Shown here: positions 37,301 to 43,135 of the stretch, in pieces
Layout of the letters: every line of letters begins with the position of its first letter
Position numbering within the stretch: the first letter of the stretch is position 1
DNA from: Candidatus Poseidoniaceae archaeon
Lineage (GTDB): Archaea; Thermoplasmatota; Poseidoniia; Poseidoniales; Poseidoniaceae
Assembly: GCA_049598575.1 (NCBI GenBank)
Contig: JBMYNT010000005.1
Span: 1-56,467, forward strand
Reading direction: 5' to 3'
DNA: 56,467 nt
The notes under the pieces: model-generated
Seen by the model: the letters and a program-made list of their open reading frames with translations, nothing else
What the model was told of the DNA's origin: nothing
Databases searched by the model: none
Program-made: the position numbers and the translations under genes

Positions 37301-40300
37301 ACTGTTTTCAGTGAAGCCTTCCGAGCAGGGCCAATCGAAGCACATCAAACATCAGGCCTACCTCAGCGCTCCGATCAAGAAGAACTCCGTGTACGAGCCC
37401 GTCCACTTCCAACCAAAGGTGGTGGTAGTGTTGGTGCAGCTGCCCCTGCTCAAACGGTCTCAGTCTCTACTCAGAAGGAACCAACGGTCGCAGATTACGT
37501 TGGCGACCGCATCGCTCAACATTGCGGTTATCCTGCTATGTTCTGTCAAGGAATGGTCAACCTACGCCTAGGCCTCGGTTTGACAGACCAGTCCATTCAA
37601 AGCATCATCTCAGCTATTGCTTCAGAAGCACAAACCGATGCAGAAGTCGATATCCAATCGGCAACAACTGCAGCGGACATCGAGCGATGGGTAAGCCAGC
37701 CTCCTGCAGGTTGGTCGCCCCGTGTTCATCTTGCAAAAACAAGCACGACATCCGGAGTGATTCAAACGCAAGCAACCCACGACCCAATGATGCAACGTCG
37801 AGCCGATCCATATGTTGTATCCGGAATTAGCCTTGGACTTCCGGGAGGCGAGAAGGTGTTCGATGAGGACGTGTTTGAACGTCTTGTTCGTGGTGAAACC
37901 TGTCTCCAAGAAGTCACGGATGAATACAAGCAACGTCTTCTTGACAAGAACATCAAGCGTCTCATCAAGGGCCGAGATGGTTCAGTCAATATCGAGCAAG
38001 CAACAAGCTTCGATGACATCCCTCAACTTGCTGGTGTCAAAGGAGCGTTTGACCTCTCCGAAGAATTTGGCATCGATCCAAAGATGGTCATGGCATGGGA
38101 CATAACAACCCAACTTGCGATGGCATCAGGGCTCTTGGCTCTTCGAGATGCTGGTATTCCATTAACGCCTGAAGAACAGGTCGGAAAGGGTGGACTTCGC
38201 TTGATTCGAAACTGGCAGGTACCAAGCACGCATCGAGACCGAACAGGTATCGTCTTCGCATCCTGTTTCCCAGGCGTCCAGATGGCCATGAAGCATGCAA
38301 AGACCGATGGTGATGATGGAGAAGGTAAGTTCGATCGTCGTTATTTGTTCCAAGTCCTCACCATGGGTCACTCACAATTTGCTCAATTTACGGGTATCCG
38401 GGGTCCGACCACAACCATCAACCTCGCTTGTGCTTCAGCAACGGGAGCTTTCCAAATCGCAGAGGATTGGCTTGCTGCGGATCGTGTCGATCGTGTTGTT
38501 ATTCTCTCCTCTGATGATGTGACTGGAGACGACATGTGGGAATGGATAGGAAGCGGCTTCGCCTCAACTGGTGCAGCCTCAACCAGCAATGTCATCGAAG
38601 AAGCAGCACTTCCTTTCGATAAGCGACGAAATGGACTTGTTCTCGGAATGGGCGCAGCATCCTTCGTTGTTGAACGTAAGAGTTCTGCTGATGAACGTGG
38701 CGTACAACCAATTGCAGAATTGCTTGGTGCAACAACGGCCAATTCAGCCTATCACGGAACCAGACTCGATGTCGAGCATGTCGCAACAACCGTTGACAAT
38801 TTTGTAGGCGAAATGGAAAACAAATGGGGATTGGACCGTCACGCAATTGCCAAGAACACGGTCTTCTATTCGCATGAAACCTACACCCCTGCTCGTGGAG
38901 GAAGCGCTCAAAGCGAAGTCAAAGCGCTACGACAGACCTTTGGTGAAAGCACCGATTCATTGGTCATTGCCAACACCAAAGGATTCACTGGACACCCAAT
39001 GGGTGTTGGAATTGAAGATGCGAGCATGTTCTATGGCTTGCTGACCAAGCGAATTCCTCCGATTGCAAATCACAAGGTCGTTGATGAGGAGCTAGGAAAC
39101 CTCAATCTTTCAAAGGGTGGTGATTATCCAAACATCCAGTACGGTTTGCGTTTTGCTGCAGGATTTGGTTCGCAAATCGGCCTCTCCTTTGTTCGAGCTT
39201 GGCCAATTCAAGGCGAACGTATTGATGGAAAGCGATTGTTGGCATGGTGTCGAGGCCTAGCAGGAACCGATGATATTCAACTTCGCCTTCTTGACAACAA
39301 ACTCGTGGCTTATGTTGATGGTGACAACAATCTCCACGGTGGCATTCAAGGTGATACTTATGAGATAACAGCACCGTATGAAGGCCTTCCAACAGAAGAA
39401 TCGCCGGTTGAACAACCAATGGTTCAAGCCCCAGCGCCTGTGCCTGAACCAGTCAAGGCCGAACCGACGCCTGCTCCTGTAGCTACCGCCGTAGTAGCGA
39501 GCGGAGATATGGTTCAAACGGTGATTGATGTGGTTGTCAAGCACACGGGTTATCCTGCTGATTTTGTAGAACTCGATCAAGATCTTGAAGGTGAACTCGG
39601 CATTGACACGGTCAAGCAAGCAGAAATCATGGTCGATATTCGCCAACACTTCAATTTGCCAGTGGACGAAACCTTCGTTCTTGCAGAACATCCTACGTTG
39701 AATCACATGATTGGCTACATTCAACGTATGCAAGGTGGAGAGGTTCCGATGCCTACTCCCGCACCGGCAGTTGAGGCAACAGCACCCGCTCCAGAAGCCG
39801 TCGTTGAAGCACCGAAGCCCGCTTCAGTAGTCGAAGCAACTCCAGTTTCGGATGAAGCAATGACGCAACAGGTCATCGATGTTGTTGTCAAGCATACAGG
39901 CTATCCCGCCGACTTCATCGAACTTGACCAAGATTTGGAAGGTGAGTTGGGCATAGACACCGTCAAACAAGCAGAAATCATGGTCGACATTCGTGAATTG
40001 TTCAATCTCCCTGTTGATGAGGACTTCTTGCTCTCTGAGCATCCAACGCTCTCACACATGATTGGCTATATTGTTCGAATGAAAGGGGGGGAGGCTCCTG
40101 TGAGCACCCCTTCAATGCCAGCCATTGAAGAAGCACCTGCGCCAGCACCTGCTCCACACGTCGAAGTGCAAAGTGCGCCGATAGTGAGCGATGCAGGAAT
40201 TGAATCCTCACTAATTGAAGTGGTTGTCAAACACACCGGCTATCCTGCAGATTTCATCGAAATGGACCAAGATTTGGAAGGAGAACTTGGTATTGATACG

Positions 40301-43135: not shown

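Follow-up and report, generated by a model that had tools for sequence, protein, structure and literature searches.

The serine that accepts 4'-phosphopantetheine in acyl carrier proteins (ACPs) is treated as invariant in textbooks, in PROSITE-type patterns and in the active-site checks of genome-mining tools. Among the closest described systems, the tandem ACPs of PfaA have been mutated at their 'active Ser residues' (PMC5067506), and a Ser-to-Thr exchange serves as a dead-ACP control (PMC3340395). Type I polyketide synthases (T1PKS) constitute the second largest class of biosynthetic gene clusters in marine archaeal genomes (PMC10304266). We have analysed a stretch of 56,467 nucleotides from a Candidatus Poseidoniaceae archaeon (contig JBMYNT010000005.1 of assembly GCA_049598575.1), hereafter the window, which encodes a PfaA-related iterative synthase followed by a divergent Sfp-type 4'-phosphopantetheinyl transferase (PPTase), and in which all three ACPs of the synthase carry Thr at the attachment position. 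From sequence comparisons and structural models we consider it probable that this Thr is the phosphopantetheine acceptor of working ACPs, and the class to which these domains belong points to an undescribed, threonine-linked form of phosphopantetheinylation.

An earlier note, made from the letters of the window, had described the motif ELGIDTVKQAE three times, with Thr1744, Thr1861 and Thr1974 at the attachment position, and the translation of 39503-40425 and of the full open reading frame (ORF) agrees with this, codons included. The note had also taken the differing codons as an argument against sequencing error, a view that the comparison of the repeats reinforced. Their pairwise DNA identity is only 68-73%, with synonymous differences at 23-34 of 82 codons, and even within the ELGIDTVKQAE motif the codons for Leu, Ile, Asp, Gly and Lys vary from repeat to repeat; this divergence therefore excludes both sequencing error and a recent duplication, Thr having been retained independently in old copies. 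The PP-binding family of Pfam (PF00550) matches the three stretches with 85.5 bits against a cut-off of 20.8 (E 3.1e-24), and each ACP individually exceeded that cut-off in a six-frame search of the genome. In a phmmer comparison with the PDB, the Thr falls on the Ser in each of the two PigH ACPs (5y08) and in the ACP 2n98. In the AlphaFold2 model of ACP1 (pLDDT 89.9) helix II comprises residues 36-50, Thr being residue 36, the first of the helix. The best Foldseek matches of this model are ACPs, such as 6lvu, 2x2b and 2qnw (TMq 0.78-0.80, root-mean-square deviation 1.4-1.7), and the TMq to solved ACPs ranged from 0.73 to 0.80 except for one listed match (4ihh_K, 0.69). The model displays the helical bundle of an ACP, but the Ser of the helix II motif (D/H)S(L/I) is absent, Thr standing in its place in all three domains. 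Ser is scarce elsewhere in them: ACP1 has none (and no Cys), ACP2 has two and ACP3 five, and those of ACP2 and ACP3 share no position. Alignments and modelling confirm that Thr occupies the canonical Ser position in all three ACPs.

That the Thr residues could stem from an error of sequencing or assembly, from contamination or from a pseudogene has, in our opinion, a negligible chance. Besides the different codons and many synonymous differences between repeats, the 2918-aa frame is intact, and the synthase occurs in 97 of 99 sampled genomes of family f1. The contig itself is archaeal, since it bears a Cdc6/Orc1 gene at 13541-14911 and the nearest homologs are labelled Poseidoniaceae or Poseidoniales (Marine Group II). 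Parts of 39435-40600 are also represented in contigs from a single metatranscriptome study (four runs; 17 pieces at 90-99% identity, 14 of them at 95-99%); wherever these pieces reach one of the three Thr codons they list no difference, and nothing is to be read into the stretches that they leave uncovered. We also discarded an alternative genetic code and RNA editing, because ACN encodes Thr under the codes that matter here and the Thr codons carry no listed difference.

The earlier note had allowed that the motif may occur in bacterial homologs, and both the homolog search and a scan with a DNA pattern found it very widely. Among 120 listed relatives, from a search first seeded with words of the ACP region, 499 of the 501 ACP-domain matches to a hidden Markov model (HMM) carry Thr, the remainder being one Ser and one Glu, and the Glu belongs to an ACP-like domain. 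As a Ser control, and for that purpose only, we used the modular polyketide synthases (PKSs) from a ketosynthase-acyltransferase (KS-AT) census, whose best 150 protein representatives comprised 147 giant modular PKSs and, as the only relatives, P0243 and P0252, both of Thr type. The three-domain ACP HMM was too narrow for ACPs of modular PKSs (11 matches in the 150 proteins) and was replaced by a regular expression, which also picks up off-target strings with A, G, D and others at the site; it gave 563 Ser and 2 Thr in the 147 modular PKSs, as against 499 Thr and 3 Ser in the 120 family proteins. The DNA pattern, allowing Ser or Thr in the context G(I/V)D-x-VKQ(A/V)E, was run over 185,579 species genomes and yielded at least 304 matches in at least 120 stretches. 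Among the matches listed, 297 encode Thr, through all four codons (ACC 142, ACG 121, ACT 18, ACA 16), and seven encode Ser, these being from Streptomyces, Corallococcus and one Actinomycetota metagenome-assembled genome (MAG) and devoid of the TGYP/PTL signature. The same listed matches place Thr-type arrays, by record title, in Elusimicrobia, Acidobacteriota, Chloroflexota, Actinomycetota (Nostocoides, Amycolatopsis, Acidimicrobiia and Mycolicibacterium xanthum), Desulfobacterota, Myxococcota, Rhodothermales and Gemmatimonadota among bacteria, and in Poseidoniales and Heimdallarchaeota among archaea. Nostocoides vanveenii (P0042), Amycolatopsis sp. NPDC021455 (L070) and Mycolicibacterium xanthum (L022) are cultured organisms with Thr-type synthases. 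The two records from Heimdallarchaeota, which are Asgard archaea (L020:3948-3974 and L061:1891-1917), read LEEDLG(I/V)DTVKQAEIFG.

An alignment of 34 domains from many phyla shows no variation at twelve positions (T15, G16, Y17, E29, L32, G33, D35, T36, V37, K38, Q39 and E41). Judged by their sequences, these tandem ACPs form a class that is large and old; its signature is TGYP...DLE(A/G)(D/E)LG(I/V)DTVKQ(A/V)E...PTL, with Thr at the N-terminus of helix II. Thr can become Ser by one base change, and selection for Thr at the attachment site probably acts throughout the class. The myxobacterial genome G208 (Myxococcota) harbours both types: a PfaA, with 1776.9 bits and five LGVDSIKRVE domains, in confirmation of the motif that the earlier note had given for PfaA (LGIDSIKRVE), two further Ser-type synthases, and a 3811-aa Thr-type synthase with four LGIDTVKQAE domains. 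This coexistence indicates that Ser-type and Thr-type are distinct paralogous classes. The four G208 synthases (L146, L147, L148 and L150) are three PfaA-like ones of Ser type and one of Thr type with a fused PPTase.

The earlier note had seen no Ser-type ACP in the cluster and had considered a separate one elsewhere in the genome. A PP-binding search of the genome of this archaeon (1.84 Mb, 90% complete, 110 contigs) returned three matches, all of them the three Thr-ACPs, and in five relatives picked for completeness (92-97%, one of them a single contig at 96%) 16 of 16 matches fell inside the synthase ORF. An undetected Ser-type carrier might nevertheless serve the synthase, the Thr-ACPs being relics, if it were a divergent small ACP, a gene missing from the MAG, or the degenerate ACP-like domain located between the AT and the second KS (KS2). 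The incompleteness and fragmentation of the genome favour this possibility, as does the capacity of HMM searches to miss divergent small proteins, and many rows of the ACP-like domain do have Ser or Thr one column before the site. We hold it to be most unlikely, given that no other PP-binding match appeared in this genome or in the five relatives, that the preceding column is N or D in P0010, P0119, P0009 and P0110 and hence holds no conserved acceptor, and that relics would not remain invariant across phyla. A jackhmmer search started from the ACP-like domain converges on true ACPs, its site in the window protein reads LGLTDQS, and across 64 archaeal rows the site column contains D (43), E (14), P (4) and A (3). 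With no conserved acceptor there, this domain was rejected as a real carrier; it may be a structural or docking remnant.

The coupling of a PPTase to the cluster, also proposed in the earlier note, was borne out by translational overlap and by co-occurrence across the order. The PPTase start overlaps the synthase stop by 11 nt, and a six-frame search of the genome gave this gene, with 30.3 bits, as its one PF01648 match. Its product has the motifs GVDAE (GxDxE) and WTSKEAIQK (WxxKExxxK), with G128, D130, E132, W166, K169, E170 and K174 invariant in 16 of 16 aligned homologs. A search of the PDB with the single sequence gave no match, and a profile search only chance-level ones (E at least 0.5); two Pfam models for N-terminal domains score under their cut-offs. 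In the structural model, of moderate quality (pLDDT 74.2), the protein adopts the two-lobed, pseudo-dimeric Sfp-type fold of about 230 residues, and up to an E of 0.001 Foldseek lists nothing but Sfp-type PPTases for it (TMq 0.42-0.56), headed by AASDHPPT, PptAb, PptT, PcpS and Sfp. The C-terminal tail of the PPTase (window 43704-43904: PIRSPEDDLLDATR...W.VGCST.R.N) is conserved in archaeal PPTases; nothing in the Pfam match corresponds to it, and confidence in this part of the model is low.

Co-occurrence was examined in 201 genomes of the order Poseidoniales, the totals including the window's own genome and the counts by family excluding it. The ACP region was found in 131 genomes (f1 97/99, f2 2/2, f3 31/99) and the PPTase profile in 130 (f1 98/99, f2 2/2, f3 29/99); ACPs and PPTase are present together in 128, ACPs only in 3, PPTase only in 2 and neither in 68. 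By genus, both occur in 18 and neither in 6, and in every case in which one contig has the two listed, the distance between them is a few kb. Loss or gain of the whole synthase-PPTase operon at once appears to have taken place within the second large family of the order. The six genera devoid of synthase and PPTase (g14, g16, g17, g19, g23 and g24) are represented by 67 sampled genomes, mostly of 1.3-1.6 Mb. In five of five bacterial genomes picked for taxonomic spread, the Thr-ACPs have a PF01648 gene at a distance of 3-9 kb. Thr-type synthases that end in a fused PPTase are P0097 and P0089 (Thermoplasmatota) and that of the myxobacterium G208, where only one further, stand-alone PF01648 match was found besides the fused PPTase.

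A docking model of the PPTase with ACP1, coenzyme A (CoA) and Mg scored 0.86, as compared to 0.00 for the best of three controls; of 80 solved complexes 58 attain this mark, and so do 2 of 110 mismatched pairs, a calibration from which our own alignments and added ligands depart. The runs share at least 93% of their contacts, with a partner pLDDT of at least 88, and the predicted interface involves ACP residues 35-37 and E132 and E170 of the PPTase. This pass may reflect likeness to the solved complexes 2cg5, 4mrt and 6rcx, and as a model it supports binding of the PPTase to ACP1 only, not transfer. The same interface bears on the idea that the ACPs are modified elsewhere than at Thr36, with the arm or another prosthetic group sitting for instance on the Thr of TGYP, since T15, G16 and Y17 are invariant too. 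T15 is situated at the end of helix I, off the face used by PPTases and partner enzymes, and the modelled interface contains residues 35-37 and not 15, residue 17 being the only nearby contact; with Thr36 aligning exactly with the Ser of solved ACPs, modification at another site seems very unlikely to us.

In the mechanism that we favour, the Sfp-type PPTase encoded downstream would move 4'-phosphopantetheine from CoA to the Thr hydroxyl by the usual Mg-dependent mechanism, generating an O-phosphopantetheinyl-threonine arm. This arm would carry malonyl and acyl thioesters among the first KS (KS1), AT, KS2, ketoreductase (KR), dehydratase (DH) and a separate FabI-like enoyl reductase (ER), and a reduced fatty-acyl chain would be the end product. 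Thr is proposed as the acceptor because the only detectable substrate of the conserved PPTase consists of carriers in which the sole candidate acceptor, at the canonical position, is the invariant Thr, and the synthase would need a thiol arm because none of its catalytic domains has lost its active-site motifs. The data show the location of Thr and its conservation, the fold, the coupling of the genes and the lack of any other carrier or PPTase in the genome; that Thr is modified, what is produced and why Thr is preferred are inferences, and our guesses for that preference are a phosphodiester that resists beta-elimination or phosphodiesterases, a restraint on the arm, or selectivity towards partner enzymes or the PPTase.

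Alternatively, the Thr-ACPs could be unmodified pseudo-carriers with a scaffold or regulatory function, in a synthase that acts on CoA-bound or free intermediates, an explanation that fits ACP-independent fatty acid synthesis in archaea and agrees with PMC3340395, where Thr prevents the modification of E. coli ACP. A clearly degenerate ACP-like domain is already present in the same protein. To our knowledge, archaea generally lack ACP and AcpS, which counts on the same side. We judge pseudo-carriers to be rather unlikely, because the invariance of E29, L32, G33, D35, T36, V37, K38, Q39 and E41 in all 34 aligned domains is much tighter than a scaffold would lead one to expect, and decay looks like the ACP-like domain, with D, E, P or A at the site. 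In addition, a PPTase with invariant catalytic residues is kept beside or fused to the synthase and is gone where the synthase is gone, and these archaea offer no other detectable PPTase substrate.

Several considerations nonetheless weigh against Thr as the acceptor. According to PMC3340395, E. coli ACP(S36T) 'cannot be post-translationally modified by 4'-PP' and gave no complementation. A secondary alcohol is a poorer and bulkier nucleophile, and the core motifs of the PPTase, as read from its sequence, present no visible adaptation to it. The PPTase model is only moderate, and the other four models lie at pLDDT 33-55. The sample of 120 relatives is biased towards the motif, since it was seeded with words of the ACP region, and the DNA pattern, although neutral as to Ser or Thr, still fixes the VKQ(A/V)E context. 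Contigs from RNA libraries span the ACP region, but such libraries may hold DNA, and the contigs are no proof of transcription. The support for modification of the Thr comes from sequences and models and is indirect.

The proposal in the earlier note of a specialised PPTase forming an orthogonal carrier system is not supported as worded, given the canonical motifs, the Sfp-type fold and a mixed Ser/Thr array. When 15 bacterial or fused PPTases were scored with the archaeal PPTase profile, the top five were all Thr-linked (35.0-26.0 bits), but four other Thr-linked enzymes (10.9, 9.8, 9.1 and 7.5 bits) fell below four generic Sfp-type ones (23.1-13.7), so that the profile, as a sequence measure, draws no clean split between PPTases of Thr clusters and other Sfp-type enzymes, nor do the core motifs differ between the two groups. 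The mixed array belongs to P0097 (3695 aa, Thermoplasmatota), with one Ser-ACP, five Thr-ACPs and a fused PPTase; its Ser-ACP, the first of the six tandem domains (aa 2000-2067, SELGIDSVKQVEL), supplies the one Ser encountered in the class, all five remaining domains having DLG(I/V)DTVKQVEL. In the myxobacterial genome G206, three Ser-type ACPs and two Thr-ACPs coexist with just one PF01648 match; this enzyme resembles Thr-linked PPTases and is encoded 0.9 Mb away from the Thr-ACPs, and an AcpS of G206 may have escaped the search. As the window archaeon has no second carrier system, there is nothing in it to be orthogonal to. In view of these sequences, dual Ser/Thr specificity of the PPTase appears as likely as strict Thr specificity. 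We regard as possible, though doubtful, a more ambitious reading in which O-phosphopantetheinyl-threonine would be a real modification under selection and the hallmark of a widespread class of lipid or polyketide synthases, whose carriers would be refractory to ordinary AcpS and Sfp enzymes and dependent on Thr-accepting PPTases of their clusters. Such carriers and PPTases would be a natural orthogonal pair and, in Marine Group II, the only carrier system, supporting an ACP-dependent fatty acyl route of bacterial type.

The features of the locus are collected in Table 1. PfaA (TIGR02813) is the best curated family for the synthase, which scores 899 bits and thus remains below the cut-off of 1010.1. 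Read from the translation, the catalytic motifs of KS1, KS2, AT, KR and DH are all intact, which gives the protein the appearance of a functional type I fatty-acid/polyketide synthase that works iteratively and has a complete reductive loop. Because KS2 retains its Cys and both His, it is not a chain-length factor; a single polypeptide with two KS domains, both potentially active, is unusual for PfaA. The Pfam match of the KR covers aa 2381-2523 (E 1.4e-23), and the DH is above the cut-off for PKS_DH_N (E 8.4e-8) but below that for PS-DH (E 9.4e-4, 19.2 bits against 23.7). The top NCBIfam matches of the enoyl reductase are FabI models, all under cut-off (223.8 against 391), and only 10 nt separate its end from the start codon of the synthase; it is likely the trans-acting ER of the synthase.

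Table 1. Genes and domains of the synthase locus, with positions in the window
Feature	Position	Strand	Synthase residues	Observations
FabI-like enoyl reductase, 266 aa	33569..34369	+		Pfam adh_short_C2, E 4.1e-70
Iterative type I fatty-acid synthase (FAS)/PKS-like synthase, PfaA-related, 2918 aa	34379..43135	+		KS1-AT-ACP-like-KS2-ACP x3-KR-DH (Pfam; ACP-like domain by jackhmmer)
KS1 with C-terminal extension	34436..35941	+	20-521	Cys in DAACASS; His in EAHGTST and QIGHLKA
Acyltransferase (AT)	36284..37267	+	636-963	Pfam Acyl_transf_1, E 2.1e-36; GHSLGE and HAFHS motifs
Degenerate ACP-like domain	37487..37699	+	1037-1107	Attachment column without conserved hydroxyl
KS2	37805..39202	+	1143-1608	Second ketoacyl-synt stretch; Cys (NLACASA) and both His (YSHETYT, FTGHPMG)
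ACP1	39503..39757	+		PP-binding; Thr1744, codon ACG 39608-39610
ACP2	39854..40108	+		PP-binding; Thr1861, codon ACC 39959-39961
ACP3	40193..40425	+		PP-binding; Thr1974, codon ACG 40298-40300
Ketoreductase (KR)	41270..41947	+	~2298-2523	SGGGSGVT nucleotide motif; Tyr in TDYAAAN
PKS-type dehydratase (DH)	42191..43096	+	2605-2906	HxxxGxxxxP in LSDHAIDGVPYHP
Divergent Sfp-type 4'-phosphopantetheinyl transferase, 260 aa	43125..43907	+		Pfam ACPS (PF01648), 28.9 bits against a cut-off of 25

The ORF at 10794-11834 (+), which lies 23 kb from the PPTase, has a cytidylyltransferase-like domain together with DUF359, which we take to be the archaeal phosphopantetheine adenylyltransferase and dephospho-CoA kinase, in which case it would be a fusion for CoA synthesis. 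A biotin carboxylase is encoded at 18695-20035 (+), and three carboxyltransferase genes are found elsewhere in the genome (C9:31880-33337, C75:3969-5429 and C16:1110-2543); acyl-CoA carboxylation, and hence a supply of malonyl-CoA, is plausible in this archaeon. The synthase region is flanked on opposite sides by two giant ORFs, one of 1964 aa with no Pfam match (24164-30058, +) and another of 1870 aa with an S8 subtilase domain (47617-53229, -).

Neither Thr-linked phosphopantetheine, nor the motif strings, nor this synthase in Marine Group II turned up in a full-text search of the literature, with subscription journals and supplements outside its reach. The words 'threonine', 'serine' and 'archaea' do not occur in the survey of secondary lipid synthases by Shulse & Allen 2011 (PMC3098273), nor do 'polyketide' or 'acyl carrier' in the Marine Group II genome papers PMC6336850 and PMC6461757. 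Natural Thr-ACPs number in the hundreds, in two archaeal lineages and no fewer than nine phyla or groups of bacteria. Should they prove to be modified, the chemistry of phosphopantetheinylation would gain a new residue, and tools or people that score such domains as inactive may be wrong. Modified Thr-ACPs could also provide an orthogonal ACP/PPTase pair for pathway engineering, as well as a handle on an abundant uncultured archaeon of the ocean, in which the synthase is a core gene of one family and the only carrier system. The Thr-type synthase further bears on whether Marine Group II archaea make fatty acids.

Compared with known systems, the synthase is closest to PfaA (TIGR02813), with which it shares an N-terminal KS-AT, tandem ACPs joined by Ala/Pro-rich linkers, a following KR-DH and a PPTase that goes with the cluster; the order KS-AT-tandem ACP-KR(-DH) is retained, though the ACP-like domain and a Cys-containing KS2 are inserted between AT and ACPs. 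No PfaB, PfaC or PfaD was present among the ORFs of the window, where only the FabI-like ER and the PPTase flank the synthase and the remaining ORFs are unrelated, the rest of the genome lying outside the search for PfaC and PfaD. Unlike true PfaA, whose ACPs use Ser (LG(I/V)DSIKRVE, as in ORFs of G208 that pass TIGR02813), the window protein has LGIDTVKQAE, stays under the family cut-off and relies on a separate FabI-like ER. Among bacterial Thr-type relatives, P0004 (1065.5) and P0029 (1137.5) pass that same cut-off, whereas P0042 (981.3) fails. A search of the atlas returned generic PP-binding clusters only. The closest solved sequence is the doublet ACP of PigH from prodigiosin synthesis (5y08, E 2e-9), which shares the context TGY...L...LE.DLG(I/V)D but differs in having Ser at the site, two domains only and another pathway.

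With the Sfp-type PPTases (Sfp, PptT/PptAb, PcpS, human AASDHPPT and PfaE-like enzymes) the window PPTase has in common the predicted fold (Foldseek E 4e-8 to 1e-5, TMq ~0.5), the motifs GxDxE and WxxKExxxK and the family PF01648, while it departs from them in its strong divergence, its conserved C-terminal tail and its presumed Thr acceptor. E. coli AcpP S36T, studied with AcpS, offers the identical substitution at the identical structural position. In PMC3340395 it is an engineered, non-functional and unmodifiable control, whereas the Thr described here is natural and conserved, and its partner is of the Sfp type and not of the AcpS type.

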